Counted from the first letter of the stretch, positions 3,847 through 64,000 are shown. The stretch: DNA of 64,000 nucleotides from Candidatus Adlerbacteria bacterium (GCA_029288895.1 JARIGK010000001.1:1446-65445); one strand, 5' to 3'. Notes: generated by a model not told the origin, from the sequence alone. Numbers and translations: made by a program.

Positions 3847-3868
3847 AATGGCGGGCCCTCGAGAGAGC

Positions 3869-4456
3869 TTAAACGGGGCGGAACGTGTCGCACCGCATCC
3901 GGAAGAGGCACGGTGGCGGGTCGGACTGGTAGTATCGGCGCCCGGCTAGAGGTACTTTGCTCAGGTCAGGGAGCGAAGCAGCATTCTCTTCGAGAATGAT
4001 GCCAAGCTCGCGAAGTCGCTTAAAGGTGTACGGCCTCCCTTCGCTGATAAGCCACTCGATGCCTTGTGCCGCAGCAAAACGGCACGCCTCATGGAGTACC
4101 CGCAGCGACACAGAAGACTTTTGTTTGGATGAAAACCACCGTCCTGCTTGGGGATGGATACTTCGGCGATAGGTGATATCGCAGAAGAGTGCGGACACCG
4201 CGTCGTATCCGTACACTTCCTCAAGTGGATGCGGAGTGTGGTCATCGCGGAACTCGATATACATCGAGCCGACCACAACTTCGTCCTGCCATGCGCCAAA
4301 GAGGAACCCGCGCGGTGAGCACGGAGGAGCTTCGCACCCATGCGTGTTGTACGCATGGGTGCGGATGAAGGCATCGATCGCATCCCACTGGCCGGGCGTC
4401 CGAGCCAGGCGAGTTTCGATGCGTTCATCCGTGGGTAGGGCGGCACTCACCACCAC
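3869..4456 (-). CDS. hypothetical protein (195 aa), possibly a GNAT-fold or N-acyl-amino-acid-synthase-like acyltransferase
   Basis: The ORF overlaps the ThiF-like gene by 10 nt and ends 22 nt before the kinase gene, so it is co-operonic. There is no unambiguous motif and the fold assignment is tentative. Confidence 0.3.
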   Translation of the reverse strand: MVVSAALPTDERIETRLARTPGQWDAIDAFIRTHAYNTHGCEAPPCSPRGFLFGAWQDEVVVGSMYIEFRDDHTPHPLEEVYGYDAVSALFCDITYRRSIHPQAGRWFSSKQKSSVSLRVLHEACRFAAAQGIEWLISEGRPYTFKRLRELGIILEENAASLPDLSKVPLAGRRYYQSDPPPCLFRMRCDTFRPV

Positions 4457-5445
4457 ACCCCGGTGTGTGAGGTGGCCTTCATGTGCACCGCATCGAATGC
4501 CAAATATCCAGGCATCGAAGGGAGAGGCTCAAACATACGCGCACGCGCTGAGCGGGCGTACACGAGTTCAGTTATGATGCGATTGGCCATAAAGCCCGTC
4601 GCCATGGGAGGGTTCGACGCGATAATGCTCGCGCGGCCTTCACGGGTGAGGCGCTCCATAAAGGCATCCTTGGTGCTATAGGTACCGCCAGGGACCCCAT
4701 ATTCGGGTAGTGTGGGCACGAATGCCCGAAGGATGACTTCGATGATGTGGTCGCGGGTGGCCTGTTGCTCTGCCTCCGTACCCGCGCGGGTACGGATTGC
4801 ATGCTCGAGCTGCGTGGCTTTTTCATAGTTAAAGCCGAGCACTTCTTCAAGTGTCATGCTGTCGTGCGTGAACTTGAAGCAGAAGGTCGAGTGCCCAACC
4901 GTGTCGCAATTGAGTAGCGGGATCCGTTGCTCGCGGGCGCGAATGTGCAGCAGTACCCGTGCGCCGATCGAGAAGAACTCGATCTCGTCGGACACGAGGT
5001 CACATCCGTAGAGAAAATGCTCGACGGTGTCCTCGGTGATTCCTTGTGGATAGATCACTAAAGGAACATCATCCGAAATGGCGCGGATCATCCGGGCTGT
5101 TTCGAGCGCCTTAGACTTGCCGACGGTCGTACGGCCAGCGCCAAACTGCCGATTGATGTTCGACGTATCGAACTCTTCGCAATCGGCGATACGCACTTCG
5201 CCTACGCCTGCACGCACAAGCGTTGCAGCAATAAGTCCGCCCATACCGCCGCAGCCAGCAACGCCGACGACGGAGGTGTGCAGCATCTGCTGTTCGTCCG
5301 GTGCGAGCCATCCAATGTTGCGGTCGGTGCGTTCGCGGTAGTAGGCATCGCTCGCGTTCGTTGGCACAAGCCGGTAGATAACCCCAGGCTCTGCATGGTC
5401 GGGCACGTCAGTGCAGGTGACTATGCGCACACTTCGTTCACTCAT
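4447..5445 (-). CDS. ThiF/MoeB/E1-like adenylyltransferase family protein
   Basis: Rossmann motif VGVAGCGGMGGLIAATL with ADCEEFDTSNINRQ (E1-like ATP-binding signature). It carries N- and C-terminal extensions relative to minimal ThiF. Confidence 0.8.
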   Translation of the reverse strand: MSERSVRIVTCTDVPDHAEPGVIYRLVPTNASDAYYRERTDRNIGWLAPDEQQMLHTSVVGVAGCGGMGGLIAATLVRAGVGEVRIADCEEFDTSNINRQFGAGRTTVGKSKALETARMIRAISDDVPLVIYPQGITEDTVEHFLYGCDLVSDEIEFFSIGARVLLHIRAREQRIPLLNCDTVGHSTFCFKFTHDSMTLEEVLGFNYEKATQLEHAIRTRAGTEAEQQATRDHIIEVILRAFVPTLPEYGVPGGTYSTKDAFMERLTREGRASIIASNPPMATGFMANRIITELVYARSARARMFEPLPSMPGYLAFDAVHMKATSHTGVWW

Positions 5446-5596
5446 TGTGTACTCCTATGTAGAGGTGCTTTCAAAGGACGGAATCGTCCACCTCAAATCG
5501 TAAGAAAAAAGCGATAAAATCGGCCCAAGGTTTTTGTCAAAACTTTAAGTATTTTTTATAAATACTTTATAACTTTTATATCAAATGTTGTTCCGA

Positions 5597-7825: not shown

Positions 7826-8431
7826 ATGAACGAACAAAACAGGCCGTGGATTTGGGGCGGTGTCGCGGTGCTCGTGGTGCTGCTCGGGCTTTGGTGGTGG
7901 CACAGCGCACATACGTCTGCCGATTTGCAGGCGGCAGATTATGGCGCCCCAGCTGCGTCGTCGACCGATGCGCTCCAGGGCCCGACCACGTCAGTTGTGG
8001 CAGAAAATCGTGGCTCGTCGACCGTGATGGGGATACTGTCTAGCCTTTCAGGAGAGTCGCGCTTTGCTGGCCTCCTTGCCAATACGGGTGTCTCGGCAAG
8101 CATCTCGGGTAAGGGCCCGTACACGGTCTTTGTGCCAACCGATGCAAGCTTTGGCATGTTGCCCTCGGGCACCATCAACAACTTGAGCGCGTCGGAATTG
8201 AAGCGCTTGGTGCAATACCATGTCATCGCGGGCAAAGCGATTGATGTAAACGCACAAGTTGCAGGCACTGTCCCAGCATTATCGAAAGACATGCTTAACT
8301 TCAGCAAGAACGTCAATGATGTCAGTGCTCGCGTTAACAGCTCGGCTGTCATCCACGCATACAAAGCATCCAATGGCGTTGTGTATGTGATCGGAGCAGT
8401 ACTGTTGCCGCCCGTATCTACAACGCACTAA
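7826..8431 (+). CDS. fasciclin (FAS1) domain protein with an N-terminal signal anchor
   Basis: YTVFVPTDASFGMLP...LVQYHVIAGK FAS1 motifs plus a hydrophobic N-terminus. The start was chosen at the internal ATG 7826. Confidence 0.75.
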   Translation: MNEQNRPWIWGGVAVLVVLLGLWWWHSAHTSADLQAADYGAPAASSTDALQGPTTSVVAENRGSSTVMGILSSLSGESRFAGLLANTGVSASISGKGPYTVFVPTDASFGMLPSGTINNLSASELKRLVQYHVIAGKAIDVNAQVAGTVPALSKDMLNFSKNVNDVSARVNSSAVIHAYKASNGVVYVIGAVLLPPVSTTH

Positions 8432-9126
8432 TGCGCGTCACTTCGACTTACCTCGCGTAACAATTTGAGGTCGTCTGACCACTTCGAGCCGTCCCACCAT
8501 TGGAGCGGCTCGAAGTTCGTTTTATAAAGTGCATGTTCTCCGTACACAGTACCCAGATAGTAATATGTAAGGCCGCGCTCTTTCGCCGCGCGAATACAAT
8601 CGAGCATGAGCCACATGCCAAGCGACTGTCGTGCGTACTCGATATTGTAAAAGGAGTACCAGTAGTGGCCCATGTCGCCATCTTCGACTTCGAGCACGTA
8701 GGCCTCGATTACTCCATTAAGTGTGTAGGTGACGACGGTCGTGATAATGCCATACGCGAACAGTGCTTCGATGCGCGGGCGCGGCATAGCGTTGGCGCCG
8801 TGCTTTTGGGCAAAGTAGGTGAGCGACAAATCCCAGAAATGATCGTCTGGCACAAACTCAGCAAATGGGATGCGCTCTATGTCGAACGTGCCGTCGAAGC
8901 GCTTTGCGATGCGGCGGTTTTCGCTTGTGAGTTCAAACTTCGGCAGCACGACGCGGGCGCTGCGGCCAGAATAAAAAATGTCGGTGCTGTTCTTTGCGCC
9001 TGAATAGGGGAGATAGCCTTCTGCGTACACATGCGCGAGCGGCTCGCCTTCGCGCATAATCCACTTTGTATCTGGGCGCGCTATGTAGATGTCGAAATCT
9101 TTGTGGGGGAGCGAGATTGATTTCAT
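8428..9126 (-). CDS. arginyl/leucyl-tRNA--protein transferase (ATE/Bpt) family protein
   Basis: C-terminal LTYYYLGTVYGEHALYKTNFEPLQWWDG resembles the ATE1 C-terminal YYYLGYYIH...KMxYKxxFxP motif. Confidence 0.55.
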   Translation of the reverse strand: MKSISLPHKDFDIYIARPDTKWIMREGEPLAHVYAEGYLPYSGAKNSTDIFYSGRSARVVLPKFELTSENRRIAKRFDGTFDIERIPFAEFVPDDHFWDLSLTYFAQKHGANAMPRPRIEALFAYGIITTVVTYTLNGVIEAYVLEVEDGDMGHYWYSFYNIEYARQSLGMWLMLDCIRAAKERGLTYYYLGTVYGEHALYKTNFEPLQWWDGSKWSDDLKLLREVSRSDAH

Positions 9127-10538
9127 GCAGGAAATTGTTTCTCGGCCAATGCAGGAATGGATGCAAGCAACCCGTCGAAGCCGCCCGAGGTCAGCAACAG
9201 TACAGCGTCTGTACCTTGTAACTCGCCTTCAAGATGCGCGAGTGCTTCGGCAGGGCTCGTAATTGCCTCTGCGTCTATACCGCTTGCGTTGACGCGCGCA
9301 ACGATTTCTTCTTGTGAAAGTTGCTCGTGCGTGTCTTTGCCCTGCGATGCAGGCTCATATATATAGACACGGTCCGCACCCTGGAAGACATGGTCGTACC
9401 ACTCGAGTGCGGCGCGGTTTCGCCAACTAAACGTGTGCGGCTCAAACACGACAACAAGGCGGCGTTCGGGGAAATGTTTTTTCATCGCAGCGATGGCGCT
9501 CTTGGCCTTTTCGTACGACGAGCCAAAGCCTTCATACACAGGCACGCTTGAGCGGGGTGAGAGTAATTCCATGCGGCGCTTTACACCTTGGAACGATGCC
9601 ACACCGTGTGCCAATTCTTCCCGAGTGAGTGCGCCCTTTTCAAGCAAGAGGGCGCTTATGCCAACGATGTTTTCTATATTGTGTTCGCCAAGCAGTGTCG
9701 TTGAAAGAGAGATGATTTTTTCTTCTGCCTTCATCAGGTCAAACGTCGTGGTTGCGCCGTAGGAAATGTTTGCTGCGTGCCACGTCGATGCGTCGCGGAG
9801 CGAATACAGCACAATCTTTCCGGTATACGCGTCTGCTAATGCGCGTGCGTACTGTTCACCGCCGTTGGCAACAAGGAGGCCGTCTGCGGGGAGCGATGCG
9901 ATCAGTTGTGTAAATGGCGCGAGGTAGTCTGCGTGGGTGGGGTAGATGTTGACGTGGTCGTGCGTTGCAGATGTGAGCAAGATGCTCTGCGCGTTGTAGT
10001 GCAAAAATTTTGATTGTGCATCCCAGTTCGATGAGGGGTATTCGTCGCCTTCGAGCACAAACATAGTTCCTTGGCCGCGGTGGGCGTGCGCGTCAAAGCC
10101 GCGCGTCACTTCTCCAATAAAATAGCTCGGGTCTTTGCCTGCTTCTTTCAAACACCAGGCGAGCAATGCAGTGGATGTAGATTTCCCATAGCTGCCCGCA
10201 ACAACAATATTGTCAGTTTCTTTCGTGAGCTCTTCCAATACATCAGGGAATGACTTCACCGATTTACCGCTTTCAAATGCCGCTTGTACTTCTTCGTTTG
10301 TTTCAGGAACAAGTTTTGCGTTTTTACCGATCACTATAATGTCTGCATCAGCGGGGATATTCTCTTTTTTGTAGCCGTGGGAAAAGAGGATGTGCGCATG
10401 TTCAAGGTAGGTGCTTACGGGCGGGTAGAAGCCTTCGTCCGAGCCGCTAATGTCCCAGCCTGCTTCGCGCAAGAGTAGCGCCGTGGCGCTCATGCCTTTG
10501 CCAGCAATGCCAATAAAGTGGGCTTTCATATACGCCAT
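9123..10538 (-). CDS. mpl: Mur ligase of the Mpl/MurC family (UDP-N-acetylmuramate:L-alanyl-gamma-D-glutamyl-meso-DAP ligase-like)
   Basis: N-terminal HFIGIAGKGMSATALLLREAGWDISGSD, P-loop VAGSYGKSTSTALLAWCL, and DEYPSSNWDAQSKFLHYNAQSILLTSATHDH, which matches the Mpl-type SKFxHY block. Confidence 0.75.
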   Translation of the reverse strand: MAYMKAHFIGIAGKGMSATALLLREAGWDISGSDEGFYPPVSTYLEHAHILFSHGYKKENIPADADIIVIGKNAKLVPETNEEVQAAFESGKSVKSFPDVLEELTKETDNIVVAGSYGKSTSTALLAWCLKEAGKDPSYFIGEVTRGFDAHAHRGQGTMFVLEGDEYPSSNWDAQSKFLHYNAQSILLTSATHDHVNIYPTHADYLAPFTQLIASLPADGLLVANGGEQYARALADAYTGKIVLYSLRDASTWHAANISYGATTTFDLMKAEEKIISLSTTLLGEHNIENIVGISALLLEKGALTREELAHGVASFQGVKRRMELLSPRSSVPVYEGFGSSYEKAKSAIAAMKKHFPERRLVVVFEPHTFSWRNRAALEWYDHVFQGADRVYIYEPASQGKDTHEQLSQEEIVARVNASGIDAEAITSPAEALAHLEGELQGTDAVLLLTSGGFDGLLASIPALAEKQFPA

Positions 10539-10561
10539 GCTAGCACCTCATCAGATAAAGA

Positions 10562-10594
10562 AAAAACCGTTCCCTAGGTAGGGAACGGTTGATC
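10562..10594 (-). terminator. Rho-independent terminator (minus strand)
   Basis: Palindrome accgttccctaggtagggaacggt; on the minus strand it is followed by TTTTTTC. Confidence 0.7.
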
Positions 10595-11482
10595 TCACGA
10601 TTGTCGGACAGCAGCCATCAGACAGCGCAACTGCTTGTCGTTATTGCGCGTCGTATGGAAACCTTCGGGCAGATAGGCGTGGCGTGTTTCCACGTTGATG
10701 CGATAGTGCCCGAATTGTTCGCGAATGATCACGGGGAGGTCGATACCGAACATCGTGCCGTCCAGTTCTTTGAGAGCTTCGTCGCCGAAGCGAGACGGGA
10801 CATGCGTGTAGAGTTTCGGGTTGCGTCGCCTGTACTCCTCCTCTTTGACCTTCCGAGGATCGCGCTCGAAGTCGAAGTGCTCGGGCGGAATGGCCCACAT
10901 AACATGCGCTTCGACTTCTTGAGGTCTGAAAAGCGTACCTTTTGCCGTGCAGATGCCTTTCAGCTTCTGCACGGCTGAATCAACAACGCTCTCGTTTTCT
11001 CTTCCTCGTTCGGTGCCGTCGGAGTCGATCCACTTCTTGTCGACAAGGCACCAAAGCCCAGCGTGGAGGAAGAGGACGATGTGGCCGTAGATGAGTATGA
11101 TCATCGGGCAACCGCCGACACTAAAGACGCCTGCGTCGCCGGGGCGGCGCAGAAACGTCCCGTCGGCGTACACAGCTTTGTTCGTGCTCCGGTGCATCGT
11201 GATGTTGCGGCCAATAGGGAACGCGACATCAAGAGCGTCGGGGTCGATGATCTTGGCGTTGAAGTCGGTTGGGGTCGGTGCGTAGACATGGGTGGCGCCC
11301 ATGTCGCGCAGCGCCAGGCTCACGCGCCCACAGAGCTCCGACTTTTCTCGAGCCGCGGCTTCGCTGTAGAGGCCTGCAAGCGACCAGTTAGGGCCGCTCA
11401 TGCAGCTCATAGCGATTGTGACGCCGCTTCGGCTTTCGATGACGGTTTCAACGGGAGTGATTCCACGGGTCAGAATGTCCAC
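10595..11482 (-). CDS. DUF152/YfiH (PgeF-like peptidoglycan-editing, purine nucleoside phosphorylase LACC1) family protein
   Basis: AVYADGTFL...GDAGVFSVGGCPMIIL...HAGLWCL matches the ADG...GCxP...HAGWRG core of the YfiH/PgeF family. Confidence 0.55.
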   Translation of the reverse strand: MDILTRGITPVETVIESRSGVTIAMSCMSGPNWSLAGLYSEAAAREKSELCGRVSLALRDMGATHVYAPTPTDFNAKIIDPDALDVAFPIGRNITMHRSTNKAVYADGTFLRRPGDAGVFSVGGCPMIILIYGHIVLFLHAGLWCLVDKKWIDSDGTERGRENESVVDSAVQKLKGICTAKGTLFRPQEVEAHVMWAIPPEHFDFERDPRKVKEEEYRRRNPKLYTHVPSRFGDEALKELDGTMFGIDLPVIIREQFGHYRINVETRHAYLPEGFHTTRNNDKQLRCLMAAVRQS

Positions 11483-54829: not shown

Positions 54830-56179
54830 ATGAGCGAATATCGGCCTACGATAGGCTTGGAAATCCATGCCGAACTCTCGACGCGCACAAAGATGTTTTG
54901 CGCGTGCCTAAACGACGCCGACGAGAAGCGCCCTAACACCAACATCTGCCCGGTATGTATGGCACACCCGGGCTCATTGCCCGTGATCAACAAAGAGGCG
55001 GTGCGCCATGTGCTCCGCGTAGGGAAGGCCTTGGGTGCAAAACTCGCCGACTATACCGAGTTCGACCGCAAGAACTATTTTTACCCAGATATTCCAAAGG
55101 GCTATCAGTTGAGCCAGTTTGCATTTCCATTGGTAAGCGGCGGCTCGCTTCGCAACGTCGACATCACACGCGTCCACTTGGAAGAGGACACAGCGCGCTC
55201 GCAACACGAGGGCAATGCAAGCCTTGTCGACTATAACCGCGCAGGTGTGCCTTTGATGGAGCTTGTAACGGAACCTGTCGTGCACACAGCCGAAGATGCT
55301 GGCGCCTTTGCAAAAGAACTGCAACTCTTACTGCGCTCACTTCGCGCAGGGGAGGCAAACATGGAAAAGGGCGAGATGCGCGTCGAGGCAAACATTTCAG
55401 TAAGTAAAACCGACACCTTTGGTACAAAGGTGGAAGTGAAGAACTTGAACTCCTTCCGCAGCGTCGAGCGTGCAATTGCGTACGAAGTTAAGCGCCAGAT
55501 CGAAGTGCTCGAAAGCGGCGGCACCGTTGTGCAAGAGACCCGTGGCTGGGACGAAGCAAAGCAGCAGACCTTCTCGCAGCGCAAGAAAGAAAGTAGCCAC
55601 GACTACCGCTACTTCCCAGACCCAGATTTGCCAAAACTTACACTTTCCGAGATCTCGGAATTCAAAGATCTAGAATTGCCAGAACTTCCGTGGCAGAAGC
55701 GTGCACGCTTAGCCGAGCTCGGCTTCTTGCAAACACAAGATATCGAACAGCTCATCGGAGACGAAAAGTTGGGTGCCTTGTTTGCACAGATGGAGGATGA
55801 TCTCGGCTCGCCCGAGCTTTTGAAAGTTGCAGCAAACTTTATCTTGAACGATATCGCTGGCCAGCGTAAAAAGGATGCGATGTGGATGCCAACTCCGGCA
55901 CTCCTCAAACAGGTGGTTGAACAGTATGCGGCGGGCACACTTGCGTCGCCGCAAGCAAAGCAATCTATCCTCACGGGCACACTTGTCGTTGCTGGCGATG
56001 CGAGCGCCTTGCCAGAACTCGTGCAAAAAATCATCGCGGCACACCCGGGGCCTGTAGCCGAGTACAAAGCAGGGAAGGAATCGACCCTCCAGTTTTTGGT
56101 AGGCATGGGTATGCGCGAAAGCAAAGGTTCGGCAAACCCGTCGGCGCTTGCTGAGGAATTTAAAAAGGCGCTTCTCTAG
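54830..56179 (+). CDS. gatB: Asp-tRNA(Asn)/Glu-tRNA(Gln) amidotransferase subunit B
   Basis: IGLEIHAELSTRTKMFCAC...ICPVCMAHPGSLPV and the remainder of the GatB signature. Confidence 0.95.
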   Translation: MSEYRPTIGLEIHAELSTRTKMFCACLNDADEKRPNTNICPVCMAHPGSLPVINKEAVRHVLRVGKALGAKLADYTEFDRKNYFYPDIPKGYQLSQFAFPLVSGGSLRNVDITRVHLEEDTARSQHEGNASLVDYNRAGVPLMELVTEPVVHTAEDAGAFAKELQLLLRSLRAGEANMEKGEMRVEANISVSKTDTFGTKVEVKNLNSFRSVERAIAYEVKRQIEVLESGGTVVQETRGWDEAKQQTFSQRKKESSHDYRYFPDPDLPKLTLSEISEFKDLELPELPWQKRARLAELGFLQTQDIEQLIGDEKLGALFAQMEDDLGSPELLKVAANFILNDIAGQRKKDAMWMPTPALLKQVVEQYAAGTLASPQAKQSILTGTLVVAGDASALPELVQKIIAAHPGPVAEYKAGKESTLQFLVGMGMRESKGSANPSALAEEFKKALL

Positions 56180-56197
56180 AGATACACGCTTGCACTC

Positions 56198-56231
56198 TAC
56201 ACATCCCGCCCATGGCGGGATTTTTGTTTGC
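56198..56231 (+). terminator. Rho-independent terminator
   Basis: cccgcccatggcggg followed by atttttgtttg, downstream of gatB. Confidence 0.7.
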
Positions 56232-56247
56232 CGATATACTGTATGCA

Positions 56248-57057
56248 ATGGACGAACTAGAAATCTCGGGTAAGCGATACATCTCGTCTAAGCGTATCGC
56301 CAAGGAAAATAAGTACCACCCCGACTATATGGGCCAGCTTATCCGTGCCGGCCGCGTCGCGGGCACGAAGGTGGGCCGGGCCTGGTACGTGGAGGAACAG
56401 TCCTTCCTCGACTACCTCGGCAAAGAGAGAGGGCCACAGGTTGTAACCGAGCCCGCTCTGGTAGCCGCAAGCAATGTTGTCGATGCAGGGGCTCCGCAGG
56501 GCGACGGCCCGAGGACTGAGCAGATTCCTAGCAAGGAATCTGTGTACCCGGAATCGACACACGTTGCTGAAGTTTTTGTTCCGGCTGAAGTTTCTGTTCC
56601 AGCTGAAGTGCACGTGCCAATCGTCGAAGAGAAAATTTTTATTCCAGAAATAAAAAAAGAAGAACCAAAAAAAGAAGAGCCGAAGGTGGCGCCAATTATG
56701 CGCAAGCCGACACTCACATATATTTCTGACTCAAGCCCACTCTTCCCTGAAATCTCTAAACGTCCAATAGTAAAAAAACAATTTGTTTCTCCTGCCCCTG
56801 CAGCAGCGCCTGTTCAAACAATAGCCGCTGCAGTTGAGATACATCCACAGATTGTAGAGAAGAAGGGTGGCTTGGTACGCAAAACGTTTGCAATCGCATC
56901 ACTCACCTTGGCGGCAGTAGCAATATTTTCTGTAGCATTTTTTGGCTCGCTTGATGTTAATACCACTGTCTTGGTAGAGCAGGGCAAACCTGCAAGCGTT
57001 GCGTTTTCGCAAAATAAAACATTGTGCTTCATTTTTGGAACATGTCAAAACGACTAA
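56248..57057 (+). CDS. membrane protein with an N-terminal HTH-like (excisionase/MerR-like) module, Pro/Glu/Lys-rich linker and C-terminal TM segment
   Basis: The start was moved past the terminator hairpin to MDELEISGKRYISSKRIAKENKYHPDYMGQLIRAGRVAGTKVGRAWYVEEQSF. Repetitive PAEVxVP and KKEEPKKEEPK linker. C-terminal hydrophobic FAIASLTLAAVAIFSVAFFG. Confidence 0.6.
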   Translation: MDELEISGKRYISSKRIAKENKYHPDYMGQLIRAGRVAGTKVGRAWYVEEQSFLDYLGKERGPQVVTEPALVAASNVVDAGAPQGDGPRTEQIPSKESVYPESTHVAEVFVPAEVSVPAEVHVPIVEEKIFIPEIKKEEPKKEEPKVAPIMRKPTLTYISDSSPLFPEISKRPIVKKQFVSPAPAAAPVQTIAAAVEIHPQIVEKKGGLVRKTFAIASLTLAAVAIFSVAFFGSLDVNTTVLVEQGKPASVAFSQNKTLCFIFGTCQND

Positions 57058-57098
57058 TGTAGAGAAAATAAGCGGAGAAAATACCATCAAATAAATTA

Positions 57099-57133
57099 TC
57101 CCCCGGACAATATGGTCCGGGGGATTTTTTGTT
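57099..57133 (+). terminator. Rho-independent terminator
   Basis: tcccccggac-aatat-gtccggggga followed by ttttttgtt. Confidence 0.8.
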
Positions 57134-57449
57134 CCGAGATATGGCTCTGCTAGGCGAGATCTCGGCACGGCAAGACGATAAAACTATAATTTGCAATGTA
57201 GAAAATTTACAAAAATCTCGTCACAAAATGAGATGAAAGTTGAAATAAAAATGCAAAATAATTTTTTATATGAGCCATGAGTCGCATGTTGAAAATAAAT
57301 TTGTCTAGCAACGTTTTAATGAATTTTTGTTTGCATTTCTATCCACAGATTTTTGTGAAATTTTACTGAAGAAAAGCGCATTTGTTTCGTAAAATATATT
57401 GTAGTGCTCTCCTCGAAATCACTGCATAAACAAAAGCATTATCGGACCT
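57134..57449 (+). promoter_or_regulatory. AT-rich (about 30% GC) leader/promoter region upstream of the giant surface-protein gene
   Basis: A sharp composition drop relative to flanking coding DNA. It contains several TTG...TAnAAT-like hexamers (for example ttgcat...tgtgaaat). No single confident -35/-10 pair was identified. Confidence 0.35.
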
Positions 57450-60400
57450 ATGTCACCTAATAAAAAAATACTCGACACACATGGTGACCCGATGCTTTCC
57501 GCACGCAAGGCGGCACTCCGTTTGCGTTGCGCATCCGACTACGTTTCGAAGCTTTGCCGCGAGGGTAAACTCGACGGCCAGCTCGTGGACGGGCAGTGGT
57601 TTGTAGCCCCAGCTTCTATCAAGGCTTTTGAAGAAGCTCGTATCCGTGCGAAGCAAGAACGTTCGCAGCAGCTTGCAGAACAGCGCCGCAAGGAGAATTT
57701 TGAATATAAAAAAACATATGGTTCGTTTGGTACGCGCACATTGTTGCGAGCACGCGCACTCGCTGTCAGTGCGCCTATAGGTGCGATTGCGGGTGGTGCG
57801 ATGTTGTTCGGTGCAGTTGTCTTTGCGTCGACGATGCATACGCCGGCGCATTCGCAGCTTGCGTCTGTGTCTTCCGCAGAGTCGGCATTTTTCGGCACAC
57901 AACCTCCGGCAGTACATGTCTCGGGTGCAGCATTTGAAAATGCATCGAACTTTTTGCGCGGCACATTTGCAACTTTGTTTGGTTCGTCAAAAAACAACAC
58001 AATTGAACTCGCGCAGAATTCAAGCCCGTCTCAACGCGGAGAATTGTCTGCTGACAATTCTCCTATGTCCGGCGCCGTCGCGCCTGCCAACGTTTCGACT
58101 GGGCTTAATTCTGCTTCAGCACCTGTCGTCCAGAACATCACGAACACATACCCTGTCATCCAGCGCACGGTGGTGCAGCAGGTTGCATCTGCGGGCGTGA
58201 GCGAAGACTACGTCACGCTGCGCCTCCAGGACCTCTACAACCGCATCGCGGTCCAGCTCTCGAACCTGCAGAACCCGGGCCGCGAAAGCCCGCTGCAAAA
58301 CTTTGCAGTGTCACAGGTCATTAACAACCTTTCCAACGTGCGCCTTAATGGGCTCTCAACCGCAGATGATATCAACGCGCACACGATCAACAGCGGCAGC
58401 CTTTCTATCACAGGTGATGCATCGTTTGGCGGGACAAACAATTTCAATACGGTACATATCGCCGGCATACTTACTGCGGCGACCACCACTACGGGTGCGT
58501 TGACCGTCAACGGTAATGCAACAACCACGGGCGTTGCGTACTTCCAGAATGATGTAAATATCGGCGGCAATACGGTCATCGCAGGCAACCTTACAGTGCT
58601 CAACAATAACGGCAACCCAGGTACTGCATTTGCTGGTACCACCACCGTAACGAACCTTGGTGTAACCAACCTTTCGACCTCGACGTTTGCAGGCTCACTC
58701 CAGACAGGTGGCGCGCTTGCGGTAGGCGGTAATCAATACAGCGGTTTTAAGCTCAGCGTAAATGGTTTGGCATACATCGGCGACCCAGCTGCACCGTACC
58801 CAGGCCTTGTTCCTGGCGACGAGATGGAAGCGCAGCTTGTTATCCGCCGCGATGCGAACCCCGCAACGATGGTGTTGCGCAATATGAATGCATTGACTGA
58901 TGCGGCAGATATCATTTCGTTTGCAAACAGCAGTGACGACCAGGACGGCAAACTGCAGCTCAACGGCGTAGCTGCAACAAGTTTGAGCGGCAGCCGCTCG
59001 TTTAACATCATGTCGAACTTTGGTGACATTGGGTTTTGGCGCAATTACTCAGGCGCAGGTACGCCGACCAACTCGTTGACCATCAAGGGCGCAAGCGCAG
59101 GTACAACGGCAGGATTTGTTGGCATCGGTACGCAAAGCCCACAGGCAAAACTCGACGTGCGCGACCAGATCTTTGTTCGCAACACCGATGGTCTTGTCGG
59201 CACCAATGACGGCGTAGAAATTGCAACCGACTCAAGCGTGCCGCGCATAAGCATCGTGGCGGGTAACCGCTACGTTGGCCTCTTTGGCGGAACTGCATCG
59301 GGTGATGTGCTTGTTCAAAATTCGGCAGGCGGCTCGACGATTTTTAAGGGCGGGTCGGGCGGCAATGTCGAACTTGCACGCATCACCAACGATGGAAATT
59401 TTGGCCTTGGCACTGCGAATCCAAATTACAAACTTTCGATAGAGAATGGTTCGGCCCCGGGCGCATCGTTCCCAACGAGCGGCTTCGGCTTTGTCCTTTC
59501 TGGCACTGGGTTTGCAAATGCAAACAATCGCTTTGCGTCGGTAGAAGGCAACAAGGCAACCTACTTCCTCACGCGCGACACAGGGGTCTCGACCGGTGAA
59601 CTTTCGACCTACGACTATGGTGCAGGAGTTGGGATGCCACTTCTGTTGAACGCAAACGGAGGAAATGTTTCCATTGGCTCTGCGACTGTTGCACAATCGA
59701 CCCTCGATGTGTTTGGTTCACTTGCTCTTGGAAGTTATGCAGGTGTAAACGCTGCACCAACAAACGGGTTTATTGTGAGCGGCAATGTTGGCATCGGCAC
59801 GACGACGCCAGCTACAACGTTCGCGGTGCAAGGCAACGGCCTTGTTTCGGGCACGTTTACTGCAGGCAGCATCATTGCAACATCAAGCTTTACGCTTAAT
59901 GGCTCGGGCACGATCAATGGCGGGTTTGCTGCGTACGCATCATCAACTATCGGCAACGGCAACCAAAACGGCGGCCTCACTATCTTCGGTGGCGCAACGA
60001 CGACGGGCAATGCATTGTTTACTGGCGGTGTTGGGATTGGCGTCGCAACCTCGGCCGCTGGCACATTGCAGGTTGCAAACAACGCCTACTTTGGCGGCAA
60101 CTTGTTTGTTGGCGGCAACTCCACAACCATCGGCAATAGCACATCCAACAGCTTGGTCATTAATTCGAGCATCAAGTCCGACCTTGTACCCGACCAGAAC
60201 ATCACCCGCGACTTGGGCTCGCCATCGTTCTACTGGCGCAATGTGTATGTCGGCAACATCGTTGCAAATAATATCTCCGCTGCATCGACTACAATTTCTG
60301 GTACCAACTCGGCAACGTTTACTATCAACGCAGACAACGTCACATCGGACACTGAAGATCAGGATCTTATCTTCTTCCGCGGCAACGTGGTGCCAAATGC

Positions 60401-63400
60401 GTTACTTTCGTGGAAAACTACGCCAAAGCGTTTTGAATTTAACCAGCCATTGTTTATCCAAAACAACACAAACAACACGCTCGGCAACACGACGCTCGAT
60501 TTGAAGGGCGAAACAGGGCAAACGGGAGCACTCTTTAACGTTGCGTCATCGACCGGTACAAGTTACTTCAATATCGCAAACACAGGCCTAACAACCCTTG
60601 CGCAAGGGTTTATCTCGCAGGCCTCATCGACGGTCAACGGTTCTCTCACCGTCAACGGCAGCGCAATAACAAACGGCACTATCACTGCAAGCAACATTAT
60701 CGCGACTTCAACATTGACGGTTAACGGCCTTGCTATTTTCTCTAACGGCATCTCGCTTACCTCATCAACAACCATTGGCAACGGTAATCAAAACGGAGGT
60801 CTGACGATCTTTGGTGGCGCAACGACGACGGGTAATGCGCTGTTTTCAGGCGCGTTGACTGCTGCTGGCAACTCGCTGTTTTCAAACGCAACCTCGACAA
60901 ACTTCTTCTCGACTACCGCATCAAGCACAAATCTATTTGCAGCAAATGCATCGTTTGGTACCGCAGCGGCGCAGTATCTTACAACAACTGCTGGTGCAAA
61001 TATCGACAACTACATCACGCTTGGGAAGAATATTTTCGGCGCTGGTGGCCATGGTGACTTTGACGGCGGTATACGTTTTAACGACACTGGCACAAATATC
61101 CCGCGCGGTATTACCTCGGCAAGCAATGGCACCGCGATGGCGATTGGCATTAATGGCAATAACTTTGGTTCTCAGGCTCTTTCCAATCAAGGCGTGCAAA
61201 TGTATTTTGACGCACGCGGACCGTATGGACGCTTTGATGTGTACACCTATGAAGCAGGCACTGGGGCAGAGAATGCTCCTATTTCGCTTTCGAGCGTTAA
61301 CACGTTGAATATTGGTGACGGCGCCCCAACCAATTCGCAGGTGGCAACGCTCTACGTTAAAGACAACACGAGCCTTGCTTCGGTGCCAACGTTCCGTATC
61401 GATCAAAACGGAAATGGTACAAGCGATTTGATGCAATGGTTTACAAGCGGCGGCGTACAGTTGGGTGCAATAAAGGCAAATGGCAACCTTGGTATTGGAA
61501 CATCGACTGCATCGCAAGCTCTCTCCGTCCAAGGCAACGGCCTCTTCTCAGGAAACATTTCTGCAGCTGCGATTACTGCAACATCGACCTTGAATGTCAC
61601 AGGTCTTTCGTCATTCTTTAACGGTATTCTTGCAACTGCATCTTCAACAATTGGCAACGGCAATCAAAACGGCGGCCTCACTATTAACGGCGGCGCAACA
61701 ACGACAGGCAGCGCATACTTTGCATCCAATGTCGGCATCGGCACGGCGAACCCAGGTTACACGCTCGATGTGAACGGCAGCTTCCATGCCAACAGCATGT
61801 TTTTGACTGGTGGCGGCAATTCGCTGAGCTTCGGCACTTCGAATGCAAACGCACGAATCACTGGCGATAACGCATCATCGGCAAACTACCTCGACTTTTA
61901 CACCGAAGGCTTCTCTCGATTACATATTTCGGATAACGGCAACGTTGGCATCGGTACAACAACCCCATCACAACTCTTCGCAGTGCAGGGTAATCAGTAC
62001 ACCTCCGGCACTGCCTTCTTCGGCGGCGCAATTACCGCAACATCGACATTGAATGTCACCGGCCTCTCAACGCTCGGTTCACTTTCAGTCACAGGTAACA
62101 CCACGCTCGCTAACGCAACATCGACGAACTTCTTCTCGACGGTTGCGTCGTCAACAAACTTGTTCGCACAAACAGGTTCTATCGGTACACTCAATGCGCA
62201 AGCACTGACGGTGTCTGGAAATACCACCCACACTGGCACACTCACTCAAACAGGTCTTGCAACCTTCACAAACGGCTTTGTGTCGCAGGCATCGTCAACC
62301 GTCAGTGGCGGCCTCTTTACTGCAAACGGTGGAGCATCAACCACAGTACTTTCTGCAAGTGGCAGCGCATACTTTGCAACTTCAGGCGGTAACGTGGGTA
62401 TTGGGCAAAACTCACCGAAAGAAAAACTTGATTCCAATGGAGCTGGAATTTTTAGCGGAGATTTCGCCACCGGTATAAATGCAGAAAATTACGCGGCGGC
62501 TGTGCTTATTTCCACAAATAGTGGTGCAACTACAGGCAGAATTAGTGCTGCTTCAAACGGAGCAAACAACGTAGATTTGGAACTCCGCGCCCTGAACGCA
62601 GGGTCTTCAAATAGTGGGCAATTATATCTTAAATCAAACGGCAATGTTGGTATCGGTACAACATCGCCGTTCTATAAACTTTCTGTCGAAGGTAGCTCGA
62701 CATTAGGCAATCAGGCAATCGCGGGCTTCTTTAATGCAACATCGACAACCGCAACATCAACATTCTCAGGAGGTCTCACTGTCGGCGGCAGCAACTTCAA
62801 CGTCACACCAAACGGTAATGTCGGCATTGGCGCCGCAACAGACGGCAGCTTCCCATTTGAAGTCAGCAACGCAGGTGGTTCTTTCGCACAATTTACCCGC
62901 TCAAGTGTGGGGACATGGATATTGGGTATGACAGGAAGCTTTGGGGCGAGCGCAGGAAGCTATCATGACAATGGAGATTTCCAGATAGCTGGAAGTGGTA
63001 CCGTTGCCGGCCAAGGTTTGATTATACAGACTCGCAACACAGGTAATAGTTTAATAAACGCTCTCTATCTGAACGGTTCGGGAGCTGTTGGCATCGGAAC
63101 CACAACAACAAACGTAAGTCAGAGCGGCTTGCTCACGGTCAATGCAAATCCATCAACATATTTGCCAAATGCATTTGTTGTGAGCTCGACAACAGCTGCG
63201 GGTGTGACAAGCAACCTCTTCAATGTATTAGCAAACGGCACTGTTGGTGTCGGTACATCGTCACCTGCAACAACTCTTTCAGTGCAGGGAAATGGGTACT
63301 TTACTGGCAACGTCGGCGTCGGCCTCTCGAGCCCAACCGCATTGCTTGAAGTGGCCGGTAATGCAAACTCTTCTGACTTCCGTGTAAGCCGCATAGGCAA

Positions 63401-64000
63401 TGCCTCATCATATTTCTCGATTGCTGCAACGGGTGGCAACAACAATGCCTCGGTATTTGGCGTTAACGGAACATCCGTGCTTGCTCTTCAGTTAAACGGT
63501 GGCATCCAAGTGGGCAGCTATGTGAACATTTCAAACACGCTTGTTGCAGCTCCTGCAAACGGTCTTATCATGGCGGGAAGCTTGGGCATCGGTACAACGT
63601 CTCCAAACTCCGCACTTCAAATTGCAGGTGTGGGCCAGACAACGGCAAATATGACTGACAGCGGCGTACAGACCGCAACGCTCAATATTGAAGACAATAA
63701 CGCATCAAATCCAGCTGGTGCCGGCGGCGCACTTGTCTTTTCATCAGCGGCAACTGCGGGGACTTATGCGCAGGCTGCAATTAAAGCGCTTATCACAAAT
63801 GGTGGCGGTAGAGGCATCGGCGACCTTGCGTTCTCGACACGTAACGCAACAAGCGATACAAACCTTACTGAGCGTTTGCGCATTACAGCGGGAGGTAACA
63901 TCGGCATCGGTACGACATCGCCATACGCAACGTTTGCAGTAAACGGAAATTCTGACTTGGGCACCAGCGCAACAGCTGGCTACTTCACTGCAACCTCAAC
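57450..64000 (+). CDS. giant repetitive Gly/Asn/Thr/Ser-rich cell-surface protein, 5' partial (at least 2183 codons, continues beyond the window)
   Basis: Frame 0 (positions 3n) has a TAG at 57402-57404 and the first ATG at 57450, then no stop codon through position 64000. This was checked codon-by-codon and confirmed at checkpoints 57780, 58020, 60000 and 63000. Product: N-terminal HTH-like module (MSPNKKILDTHGDPMLSARKAALRLRCASDYVSKLCREGKLDGQLVDGQWFVAPASIKAF), one TM helix (ALAVSAPIGAIAGGAMLFGAVVFA), then repeats such as GNVGIGTTSP, IGNGNQNGGLTIFGGATTTGNA and ATSTNFFSTxASSTNLFA, reminiscent of tail-fibre and beta-helical adhesin repeats. The ORF track does not list it because no stop codon occurs in the window. 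Confidence 0.85.
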   Translation, partial: MSPNKKILDTHGDPMLSARKAALRLRCASDYVSKLCREGKLDGQLVDGQWFVAPASIKAFEEARIRAKQERSQQLAEQRRKENFEYKKTYGSFGTRTLLRARALAVSAPIGAIAGGAMLFGAVVFASTMHTPAHSQLASVSSAESAFFGTQPPAVHVSGAAFENASNFLRGTFATLFGSSKNNTIELAQNSSPSQRGELSADNSPMSGAVAPANVSTGLNSASAPVVQNITNTYPVIQRTVVQQVASAGVSEDYVTLRLQDLYNRIAVQLSNLQNPGRESPLQNFAVSQVINNLSNVRLNGLSTADDINAHTINSGSLSITGDASFGGTNNFNTVHIAGILTAATTTTGALTVNGNATTTGVAYFQNDVNIGGNTVIAGNLTVLNNNGNPGTAFAGTTTVTNLGVTNLSTSTFAGSLQTGGALAVGGNQYSGFKLSVNGLAYIGDPAAPYPGLVPGDEMEAQLVIRRDANPATMVLRNMNALTDAADIISFANSSDDQDGKLQLNGVAATSLSGSRSFNIMSNFGDIGFWRNYSGAGTPTNSLTIKGASAGTTAGFVGIGTQSPQAKLDVRDQIFVRNTDGLVGTNDGVEIATDSSVPRISIVAGNRYVGLFGGTASGDVLVQNSAGGSTIFKGGSGGNVELARITNDGNFGLGTANPNYKLSIENGSAPGASFPTSGFGFVLSGTGFANANNRFASVEGNKATYFLTRDTGVSTGELSTYDYGAGVGMPLLLNANGGNVSIGSATVAQSTLDVFGSLALGSYAGVNAAPTNGFIVSGNVGIGTTTPATTFAVQGNGLVSGTFTAGSIIATSSFTLNGSGTINGGFAAYASSTIGNGNQNGGLTIFGGATTTGNALFTGGVGIGVATSAAGTLQVANNAYFGGNLFVGGNSTTIGNSTSNSLVINSSIKSDLVPDQNITRDLGSPSFYWRNVYVGNIVANNISAASTTISGTNSATFTINADNVTSDTEDQDLIFFRGNVVPNALLSWKTTPKRFEFNQPLFIQNNTNNTLGNTTLDLKGETGQTGALFNVASSTGTSYFNIANTGLTTLAQGFISQASSTVNGSLTVNGSAITNGTITASNIIATSTLTVNGLAIFSNGISLTSSTTIGNGNQNGGLTIFGGATTTGNALFSGALTAAGNSLFSNATSTNFFSTTASSTNLFAANASFGTAAAQYLTTTAGANIDNYITLGKNIFGAGGHGDFDGGIRFNDTGTNIPRGITSASNGTAMAIGINGNNFGSQALSNQGVQMYFDARGPYGRFDVYTYEAGTGAENAPISLSSVNTLNIGDGAPTNSQVATLYVKDNTSLASVPTFRIDQNGNGTSDLMQWFTSGGVQLGAIKANGNLGIGTSTASQALSVQGNGLFSGNISAAAITATSTLNVTGLSSFFNGILATASSTIGNGNQNGGLTINGGATTTGSAYFASNVGIGTANPGYTLDVNGSFHANSMFLTGGGNSLSFGTSNANARITGDNASSANYLDFYTEGFSRLHISDNGNVGIGTTTPSQLFAVQGNQYTSGTAFFGGAITATSTLNVTGLSTLGSLSVTGNTTLANATSTNFFSTVASSTNLFAQTGSIGTLNAQALTVSGNTTHTGTLTQTGLATFTNGFVSQASSTVSGGLFTANGGASTTVLSASGSAYFATSGGNVGIGQNSPKEKLDSNGAGIFSGDFATGINAENYAAAVLISTNSGATTGRISAASNGANNVDLELRALNAGSSNSGQLYLKSNGNVGIGTTSPFYKLSVEGSSTLGNQAIAGFFNATSTTATSTFSGGLTVGGSNFNVTPNGNVGIGAATDGSFPFEVSNAGGSFAQFTRSSVGTWILGMTGSFGASAGSYHDNGDFQIAGSGTVAGQGLIIQTRNTGNSLINALYLNGSGAVGIGTTTTNVSQSGLLTVNANPSTYLPNAFVVSSTTAAGVTSNLFNVLANGTVGVGTSSPATTLSVQGNGYFTGNVGVGLSSPTALLEVAGNANSSDFRVSRIGNASSYFSIAATGGNNNASVFGVNGTSVLALQLNGGIQVGSYVNISNTLVAAPANGLIMAGSLGIGTTSPNSALQIAGVGQTTANMTDSGVQTATLNIEDNNASNPAGAGGALVFSSAATAGTYAQAAIKALITNGGGRGIGDLAFSTRNATSDTNLTERLRITAGGNIGIGTTSPYATFAVNGNSDLGTSATAGYFTATS
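59948..61716 (+). repeat. three copies of a roughly 66-nt intragenic repeat spaced about 830-880 nt apart, reflecting an approximately 280-aa module duplication inside the giant gene
   Basis: The repeat core attggcaacggcaa(c/t)caaaacgg(c/a)gg(c/t)ct...ggcgcaac(g/a)acgac(g/a)gg encodes IGNGNQNGGLTI(F/N)GGATTTG. Copies lie at about 59948-60013, 60774-60839 and 61651-61716. A second repeat, acatcgac(g/a)aacttcttctcgac...aa(a/c)(c/t)t(a/g)tt(t/c)gca, lies at about 60890-60945 and 62117-62170. Confidence 0.8.

Follow-up and report, generated by a model that had tools for sequence, protein, structure and literature searches.

In this study we describe two consecutive genes in a 64,000-nucleotide stretch of DNA from Candidatus Adlerbacteria bacterium (GCA_029288895.1 JARIGK010000001.1:1446-65445), hereafter the window, and the proteins that they encode. 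Each protein opens with a winged helix-turn-helix (HTH) module, here called the head, and continues through a linker and a single transmembrane (TM) helix to a part outside the membrane. The first, gene A, encodes a small protein; the second, the giant gene, encodes a fibre-like protein whose reading frame runs past the end of the window. The heads prove to be homologous, and we propose, tentatively, that they are membrane-tethered DNA-binding domains at the base of a surface fibre. The two genes and the parts of their products are as follows.

56248..57057, + strand: gene A, 269 amino acids (aa), comprising HTH, disordered linker, TM helix and short outside tail (open reading frame (ORF), translation, homologues, alignment A1)
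56248..56427, + strand: A-type winged HTH module, aa 1-60 (AlphaFold2 (AF2), Foldseek, hhalign to the giant module)
56713..56754, + strand: linear motif LTYISDSSPLFPEI in the cytoplasmic linker of A, aa 156-169 (alignment A1)
56887..56952, + strand: single TM helix of A, aa 214-235 (Kyte-Doolittle peak 2.35; AF2 helix 208-234, predicted local distance difference test (pLDDT) score ~90)
56974..57045, + strand: short extracytoplasmic tail of A, with a VExGKPASV motif and a Cys pair (alignment A1; AF2)
57450..64000, + strand: giant gene, N-terminal 2183 codons, extending past the window end (open ORF; tail-fibre PHROGs)
57450..57635, + strand: N-terminal extension and winged HTH module of the giant, aa 1-62 (AF2, Foldseek, HTH_17 in orthologues)
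57609..57764, + strand: long basic helix from HTH to membrane, aa 54-105 (AF2, a single helix 54-105)
57756..57836, + strand: single TM helix of the giant, aa 103-129 (sole hydrophobic segment in 2183 aa; N-flank net +4)
57852..57896, + strand: outside juxtamembrane motif SQLASVSSAESAFFG (family consensus AALxQxxSPFFG, alignments A2 and A3)

The product of gene A begins MDELEISGKRY, and its orthologues do not support a longer ORF from 56212. The giant ORF lies in frame +3 and starts at 57450 (MSPNKKIL..., MSPNKKILDTHGDPMLSARK), with MLSARK at 57492; its frame is free of stops from 57405 to 63998, and complete giant orthologues are 3277-5533 aa long. An initial annotation of this DNA quoted peptides from both N-termini, which are found where it placed them, and held that the two genes share one N-terminal module. 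Pairwise and profile comparisons of the N-termini bear this out with similarity well beyond chance. BLASTP aligns them with 13 identities in 45 positions (29%, E 3e-6), and in phmmer searches against 932 six-frame segments of the window the modules are each other's best non-self match (E 0.004 and 0.07). Hidden Markov models (HMMs) built from orthologues detect the opposite type in both directions, the A-type head HMM finding giants at E 1e-9 to 1e-20 and the giant-type head HMM finding A proteins at 1e-7 to 1e-9, and hhalign of the two family alignments returns a probability of 98.7% and an E of 4.2e-16 over 51 columns (A 6-56 against giant 10-60). In a gap-free alignment of the three subtypes (A type, giant type and the type C described below) D-Y, L, R, W and V are invariant and S is nearly so. 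On these sequence comparisons, the N-terminal modules of gene A and of the giant are homologous.

The pair is conserved in order and orientation across the Paceibacteria. A word-indexed search with gene A gave 342 homologues, of which the named ones are all Adlerbacteria, Paceibacterota or Parcubacteria. With each species represented by one genome, a scan yielded 107 loci, and 79 of them were retained. These 79 are labelled Adlerbacteria, Nomurabacteria, Kaiserbacteria, Giovannonibacteria, Paceibacterota or Minisyncoccia, with some automated assemblies labelled 'Saccharibacteria', and restriction to the Candidate Phyla Radiation (CPR) fits the source names observed. In 65 of the 69 loci where 900 nt or more lie downstream of A, a giant-type ORF follows next on the same strand, and 61 of these 65 ORFs reach the end of the fetched DNA (median >1592 aa). 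The flanking genes form a conserved housekeeping neighbourhood, secA-obg-gatB ... gap-rpiB. Word-indexed searches with the giant N-terminus returned 2 and 9 hits only, and because low-complexity words saturated their candidates we relied on exhaustive HMMER searches and on the genome loci. The head profile matched 10,346 of 1.84 billion cluster representatives at E<=1e-3, 5,336 at E<=1e-10 and 191 at E<=1e-30, so that the 'small family' of the initial annotation is instead large and class-wide, and the module recurs on large surface proteins across related Paceibacteria loci, as that annotation had suggested it might. The best 150 HMMER matches (P0131-P0280) all carry two tandem heads, followed in 130 by a hydrophobic segment, and are either ~300-350 aa or 1692-5533 aa long; tandem head duplication is also seen in the giants of loci L003, L004, L012, L013 and L049 and in the A-type proteins of Kaiserbacteria-like lineages, L075-L080. 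Public labels for these proteins are 'hypothetical protein' or 'helix-turn-helix domain-containing protein', and one orthologue is called 'trimeric autotransporter adhesin' (JGI). At one locus, L001 (2245-4754), secA is called as six fragments, which suggests that this assembly is frameshift-prone and that protein lengths from the L001 contig need care.

This conservation also bears on whether the likeness of the heads could be due to chance, or whether the heads are relics of mobile-element excisionases joined to ordinary signal anchors. The pairwise identity is merely 29% over 45 residues, and the HTH_17 domain is typical of excisionases of phages and of integrative and conjugative elements; yet the profile-profile E of 4e-16, the retention of the pair amid housekeeping genes in 65 of 69 species-level loci and the confident prediction of an HTH fold speak against such an origin, as do the absence of an integrase near the pair at the loci examined and of the giant-type module pattern from the 2.9 million viral contigs of IMG/VR. 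An origin by chance or as an excisionase relic is vanishingly improbable on these grounds, and we treat it as excluded. A mobile-element or phage origin of the pair was rejected on the last two of these negatives, and a recombination directionality factor, which would be small, soluble and integrase-adjacent, matches neither the TM anchor nor the housekeeping context.

The AF2 models agree with the HTH_17/excisionase-like fold that had initially been proposed. For A (the 28 sequences of alignment A1 serving as input), residues 1-60 are modelled with a pLDDT of 83-95 as strand-strand-helix-helix-strand-strand-helix, residues 61-205 as disordered, and residues 208-234 as a confident helix followed by a small outside hairpin. 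For the giant N-terminus (10-sequence alignment), residues 8-90 exceed a pLDDT of 90 and form a winged HTH as in A, the last helix of which runs on as one long helix (54-105) towards the membrane; R71, L75, R79 and E82 of this stalk helix are invariant across giant-type and type C proteins. A confident winged HTH is modelled where ordinary signal anchors without such a fold might have stood. Each model contains an HTH with a two-stranded wing superposable on Xis and BldC. In Foldseek searches of the PDB the A module matches best Xis 4j2n (TM-score 0.71, root-mean-square deviation (rmsd) 1.5) and BldC, and the giant module matches BldC 6amk (TM-score 0.84, rmsd 1.3 A, 22% identity) and Xis (TM-score 0.76), the Xis of mycobacteriophage Pukovnik spanning TM-scores of 0.71-0.76 and rmsd values of 1.5-1.8 A over both modules. 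TraN, RacA, pSK1 Par and RdfS are further neighbours, and the best matches are all DNA-binding proteins of the excisionase/MerR-like class. The Foldseek E-values are weak (~0.03) because the domain is small, with probabilities of 0.97-1.00. HTH_17 (PF12728) is the sole Pfam family matched by both window proteins and is found at E<=0.01 in 37 of 43 giant-type and 15 of 28 A-type orthologues; the complete giants P0133 and P0134 pass its cut-off with 31.2 and 28.1 bits (best E 3.6e-9). PHROGs places A in an excisionase family (8e-5), and an NCBIfam search gave nothing meaningful.

In comparison with BldC, Xis and RdfS, which are small MerR-like HTH_17 proteins, the heads have the same fold (rmsd 1.3-1.8 A over ~50 residues) and the same signature, ...V.(K/R)L.R.GKL....W..., whereas those proteins are soluble, 50-90 residues long and often found in mobile elements, and the heads are fused to a TM helix and, in one of the two cases, to a fibre of >3000 residues. 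A 'DY' at the start of the recognition helix and an extra N-terminal beta-hairpin are specific to the heads. A classical MerR regulator was considered and rejected, there being no MerR or MerR_1 match and no effector domain, the long helix of the giant entering the TM segment instead. Two cysteines of the giant head (aa 27 and 36; window 57528-57557; LxC-APDYVxKL-C-REGKL) are at least 90% conserved and correspond to Tyr and Ile in A-type heads; they may pack in the core or form a redox pair.

Hydropathy shows one hydrophobic segment per protein (A 212-236, giant 103-129), with nothing of the kind ahead of the head, and the net charge of the flanks is +3 (A) and +4 (giant) on the N-side and +1 (A) and -1 (giant) on the C-side. 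With a single TM segment, a basic N-flank and nothing hydrophobic before the head, both proteins are predicted to be N-in/C-out single-pass anchors whose HTH heads face the cytoplasm. The initial description of membrane-anchored proteins with a cytoplasmic DNA-binding-like head fits this hydropathy and charge. Both functions that the initial annotation offered for the module, an anchoring or sorting role for surface proteins and a membrane-tethered regulator pair, are still candidates. It also held that each module is followed by a linker and a hydrophobic helix, which stands for the one hydrophobic segment of each protein but glosses over linkers of different kinds: the head of A sits on a disordered acidic leash of ~150 residues (family median net charge -5.5), and that of the giant on a rigid basic helix of ~45 residues close to the membrane. 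Outside the membrane A has ~35 residues, with a beta-hairpin predicted by AF2 at 239-253 and the VExGKPASV motif conserved in alignment A1, whereas the giant displays more than 2000 residues of fibre there (3000-5500 in complete orthologues).

The base of the giants is constant, and the ectodomain is variable and often fibrous. The ectodomain of the window giant is 60% G/T/A/S/N and matches two tail-fibre PHROGs (1.9e-13 and 9.4e-13), and a Pfam scan of the first 2183 residues of this giant found no family at E<=0.1. Of the complete giants, P0133 carries Gp34_trimer, C1q and a bacterial Ig-like domain and P0134 carries seven LVIVD repeats; the giant of L001 has Gly_rich_2, and at L060 the module bears merely ~180 outside residues. 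From such domain matches the fibre is probably trimeric. The likeness to phage long tail fibres and trimeric fibrous adhesins thus lies in the tail-fibre PHROGs of the window giant and in the Gp34_trimer, C1q and Ig-like domains of its orthologues, whereas the giant differs from them in its anchor, an N-terminal helix in the inner membrane with the head on the cytoplasmic side, and in not occurring in viral contigs. The label trimeric autotransporter adhesin was rejected, the N-terminus being an HTH and a TM helix, not a signal peptide, and no YadA-type C-terminal anchor being present in P0133 or P0134, the complete orthologues scanned (the window giant itself ends beyond the window). Downstream of the short giant-type protein of L060, positions 7880-11024 encode secreted proteins with dockerin-like repeats and cohesin-like domains, a hint that this Paceibacteria genome encodes a surface assembly of the cohesin-dockerin kind. 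In the region 56000-64000 of the window, GC skew, positive over 1-58 kb, turns negative inside the giant gene with a sign flip at ~58 kb, which is probably due to the amino-acid composition of the giant and not to a replication landmark.

Two loci, L082 and L083, carry the head and the fibre on separate proteins. There the order is secA, a holin-like gene, obg, gatB, an A-type protein and then a 241-245-aa 'type C' protein consisting of a head, a basic helix, a TM helix and ~110 outside residues, after which comes a headless 3823-aa giant with an ordinary short signal peptide (MVVALVFASIPAAAFPTLVAAAP) (L082 6652-16738; L083 7016-8937). Type C aligns with the window giant over the head, the helix, the TM segment and the QLASVS motif (E 2e-13), the last of which corresponds to the juxtamembrane motif of the giant, and the stand-alone giant and the window giant share the repeated fibre motif NGxVGIGTxSPxxxLxVxG. 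This split arrangement favours a real link of the module to the fibre, and from this fusion or fission we infer that the head-TM unit and the fibre are one functional system, covalently joined or not. Ahead of type C, too, the spacer is long and rich in AT, but neither the TATCCACAG motif nor the leader motif described below occurs in it.

The split case can also be read as a sign that the module serves only in biogenesis or anchoring, the HTH and TM helix being an extended signal-anchor that targets, orients or holds huge fibres and is perhaps cleaved after export, with the HTH as a ligand-free plug: the giant there has a normal signal peptide, and the ~110 outside residues of the separate module could hold the fibre. 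The wide range of ectodomains, in kind and in size, that the module carries, the juxtamembrane motif conserved on the outside (SPFFG / QLASV / GKPASV) and the V-x-A-like ends of the TM helices, which read from the sequence are possible signal-peptidase sites, point the same way. Such a role sits poorly, however, with A, which has almost no cargo in its ~35 outside residues and yet the most conserved head, with basic surface positions and a wing motif that a plug would need neither conserved nor intact, and with a tandem duplication of heads that has no obvious use in export, and we consider it unlikely.

The DNA contacts of BldC include the phosphate-contacting Lys33, the base-reading Arg30 and the wing Arg47 (PMC5859096), and they were mapped by aligning the family with the verified BldC sequence. 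The Lys33 position is an Arg invariant across all subtypes; at the Arg30 position giant-type heads have Lys, type C has Arg and A has an invariant Gln; and the Arg47 position corresponds to the invariant Arg44 of A (KVGRAWY), where the HTH_17 wing motif K-V-G-R-x-W is intact. The head cores carry a net positive charge (median +2 to +3), the stalk helix of the giant one of +3. The retained contact positions favour DNA binding by the heads, and DNA appears the favoured ligand because the close structural neighbours all bind DNA, the wing motif of A is intact and the BldC contacts are conserved. BldC binds DNA as head-to-tail multimers (PMC5859096), and both BldC and Xis-type proteins form such multimers on direct repeats; this mode would suit the tandem or multivalent heads seen here, and the changes in head copy number fit cooperative multimer binding.

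We propose that the heads are functional DNA-binding domains kept tethered to the membrane, which would bind DNA as head-to-tail multimers in the manner of BldC and Xis. Multivalency could come from the likely trimeric fibre, from the tandem head duplication in some lineages and from the second protein, A, and the assembly would connect the chromosome with the surface fibre at its base. It might act as a membrane-bound one-component regulator with the logic of ToxR and CadC, possibly with the giant gene's own, strongly conserved promoter and leader as its target, or as a RacA-like tether of the chromosome to the envelope, and the data do not separate regulator from tether. Judging from the sequences and structural models, we put the probability that the heads are membrane-tethered DNA-binding domains coupling the fibre base to the chromosome, in either role, at about 0.45, slightly short of even odds.

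Both roles have known counterparts. ToxR, CadC, TcpP and BcrR have an N-terminal cytoplasmic DNA-binding domain, a single TM segment and a C-terminal outside domain, and some of them work with a small membrane partner. The same layout of cytoplasmic head, one TM helix and outside domain is seen here in hydropathy, flank charge and AF2 models, whereas the DNA-binding domain of the ToxR/CadC type is of the OmpR/PhoB or XRE kind and that of the heads is HTH_17-like (an OmpR/PhoB-type winged helix, Trans_reg_C, had no Pfam match in 71 family members), and the outside parts are small sensors there and giant fibres here. RacA and pSK1 Par resemble the heads in structural class, with a winged HTH that leads into a long helix, and in the concept of tethering DNA to the envelope; RacA, in contrast, reaches the membrane via DivIVA without a TM helix of its own, neither protein has sequence similarity to the heads, and no centromere-like repeats of the RacA/pSK1 Par kind were found at this locus.

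An HTH at a membrane may also serve a protein ligand. The HTH of RodZ binds MreB, a protein, and not DNA (PMC6052060, PMC9804626), and in the corresponding reading the heads would be adaptors that dock a cytoplasmic protein of the cytoskeleton, the divisome or a secretion system to the fibre base without DNA, the motif on the leash of A recruiting a further partner. The layout of the giant type and of type C, with a cytoplasmic HTH, a basic juxtamembrane helix, one TM segment and an outside domain, is that of RodZ, and the A head, with 24 invariant columns in alignment A1, is conserved to an extreme degree that would suit a conserved protein partner. The linker motif of A (consensus LTYIxDxxPLFPxI; L156 and Y158 invariant, D161 and P167 at least 90% conserved in alignment A1) lies amid otherwise disordered sequence, as is typical of protein-protein docking, and is kept in the distant A-type protein of L082 (KITYTTDEGDLIPNI); it may loosely resemble the C-terminal peptides of FtsZ. 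RodZ differs, on the other hand, in its XRE-type HTH, the fold of the heads being excisionase/MerR-like, and in a long linker that is periplasmic where that of A is cytoplasmic; there is no sequence similarity, and Pfam scans found neither a RodZ-type (XRE, HTH_25-like) HTH nor DUF4115. Further, the close structural neighbours all bind DNA, the basic DNA-contact positions are kept, and the neighbourhood holds no co-conserved partner gene. A RodZ-like adaptor is in our estimate a doubtful explanation.

If the tethered heads do bind DNA, the DNA around the two genes itself may hold their targets, and the following elements were located there.

56203..56225, + strand: intrinsic terminator of gatB, upstream of gene A (terminator scan, 8-pair stem and T run)
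56235..56240, + strand: -10-like hexamer TATACT of gene A, 7 nt before the ATG (TAnnnT conserved)
57098..57130, + strand: intrinsic terminator downstream of gene A (11-pair stem and T run)
57339..57348, + strand: CTATCCACAG, a DnaA-box-like motif in a constant position ahead of the giant gene promoter
57390..57395, + strand: -10-like TAAAAT of the giant gene (TAxAAT conserved, 40-locus alignment A5)
57412..57445, + strand: block CTCGAAATCACTGCATAAACAAAAGCATTATCGG in the 5' untranslated region (5'UTR), conserved over ~45 loci

The two genes are transcribed as separate units. The TAnnnT hexamer ends 6-8 nt before the ATG of gene A in 62 of 69 loci and 4-9 nt before it in 67 of 69, taking the form TATACT in 46, and a Shine-Dalgarno-like 4-mer is present in 2 of 69; the gene A mRNA accordingly appears, in this prediction, to be leaderless. 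The promoter of gene A follows directly on the stop codon or the terminator of gatB. In gene A itself, codon 7 (56266-56268) is a Ser codon and reads TCG in 67 of 69 species, although TCG makes up merely 33% of Ser codons in the window genes and the synonymous sites adjoining Ser7 vary freely, which suggests a constraint at the nucleotide level (ATMTCGGG) near the 5' end of the predicted leaderless mRNA.

The spacer between gene A and the giant gene is 392 nt long with 34% GC, against 51% for the window, and a spacer of 310-930 nt, AT-rich at all loci, precedes the giant gene. Its layout is a DnaA-box-like TATCCACAG, ~20 nt, a -35-like TTGCA with TATATAGA, the -10 box TAxAAT, a further ~20 nt, CCGAACTnnCTGnnnAAACAAAAGnnTTTTCGG and then 3-6 nt to the ATG. 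The core TATCCACA of the DnaA-box-like motif, in its extended form (T/C/A)TATCCACA(G), lies ~45 nt ahead of the -10 box in 39-40 of 43 spacers, as against at most 11 in shuffled spacers. The 5'UTR block (consensus CCGAACT..AAACAAAAG..TTTTCGG) occurs once per locus and nowhere else in the locus at ~45 loci; its CCGAACTnnCTGnnnAAACAAAAGnnTTTTCGG form, of 32-34 nt, is nearly invariant (for example L009 4095-4125) where the proteins are only 35-45% identical. These conserved spacer blocks are candidate targets of the heads, and the single DnaA-box-like motif suggests control of the fibre gene by DnaA or the cell cycle. A structured RNA or riboswitch in the giant leader was rejected (RNAalifold predicts no pairs, and Rfam gave only sub-threshold matches, on the terminator hairpin), as was a replication origin in the AT-rich spacer, there being one box per spacer, no cluster in the window and co-oriented flanking genes, and as was a 'CGAACT...TCGG' element shared by the first codons of gene A and the giant leader, since CGAACT is not conserved at synonymous sites. 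A further recurrent spacer motif, (TAG)CCGAGATAT(CG), found at 57134-57144 of the window and, in 17-25 of 43 loci, ~300 nt ahead of the giant ATG, resembles the CCGAGATATACT that forms the -10 region of gene A and may be a second promoter within the spacer.

Several points weigh against heads that tie the fibre to DNA. RodZ shows that an HTH fold may be turned to binding a protein, and a structural role could account for all of the invariant residues (D, Y, L, R, W and V). The giant-type wing is without the basic residues present in BldC and in the A type; the window copies score 15.6 (A) and 14.6-17.1 bits (giant) with HTH_17, under its gathering score of 27 bits; and PDB sequence searches with the family profiles found no true relatives. 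An ectodomain of 3000-5000 residues is odd as a 'sensor', and the trimeric state that would help to provide multivalency is read solely from domain matches in orthologues. Among the candidate targets, the DnaA-box-like motif is more simply explained by DnaA, and nothing so far ties the 5'UTR block to the head proteins.

An extension of the proposal to tethered heads would make the pair a device running from fibre to chromosome, in which contact or tension at the tip passes through the single-pass anchor to DNA-bound heads, or leads to a Notch-like proteolytic release at the juxtamembrane motif, with the leash-borne head of A as partner or competitor and with the fibre gene, through its promoter and leader block, and genes of host interaction as the output. 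We regard this chain of steps as quite improbable; if true, Paceibacteria would have a contact sensor of a new kind and, with it, the first route of host-attachment signalling proposed for them.

CPR bacteria, Paceibacteria among them, are ultra-small, mostly uncultured symbionts, in which host attachment and host sensing are poorly understood and most conserved genes are without an assigned function. In this setting a class-wide pair that physically joins a giant surface fibre to a cytoplasmic domain of a DNA-binding type is a candidate for coupling the envelope to the interior, whether in gene regulation, as a nucleoid tether or in the docking of a machine, and it extends the use of the excisionase/BldC fold to membrane proteins. 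The HTH_17 domain and the principle of membrane-tethered HTH proteins are already known; the fusion to giant fibres, the A partner and the class-wide conservation are not described in Pfam, NCBIfam or the searchable literature, where we searched for CPR giant proteins, for HTH_17 with membrane and for Minisyncoccia and found the family undescribed. Experimental handles are offered by the fusion or fission case, by the invariant promoter and leader elements and by the predicted leaderless partner gene, and the first cultured relative is Minisyncoccus.

The two genes also carry a palindromic mini-element each, in frame.

56506..56556, + strand: element el1 in the linker of A, encoding the peptide GPRTEQIPSKESVYPES (blastn; hairpin 56520-56543)
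58020..58097, + strand: element el2 in the giant gene, encoding the peptide SSPSQRGELSADNSPMSGAVAPANVS (perfect 11-bp hairpin 58038-58063)

Such elements are 45-80 nt long, have perfect 9-11-bp hairpins and lie in disordered regions, and relatives carry them in the partner gene or reversed: el1 matches the giant gene of L002 (7816-7858) at 95% identity over 43 nt and is present too in L015 (4610-4675), and el2 has 88% identity over 77 nt to gene A of L002 (6260-6336) and is found reversed in gene A of L007 (6426-6478). In these properties they resemble the Rickettsia palindromic elements, which insert into ORFs.

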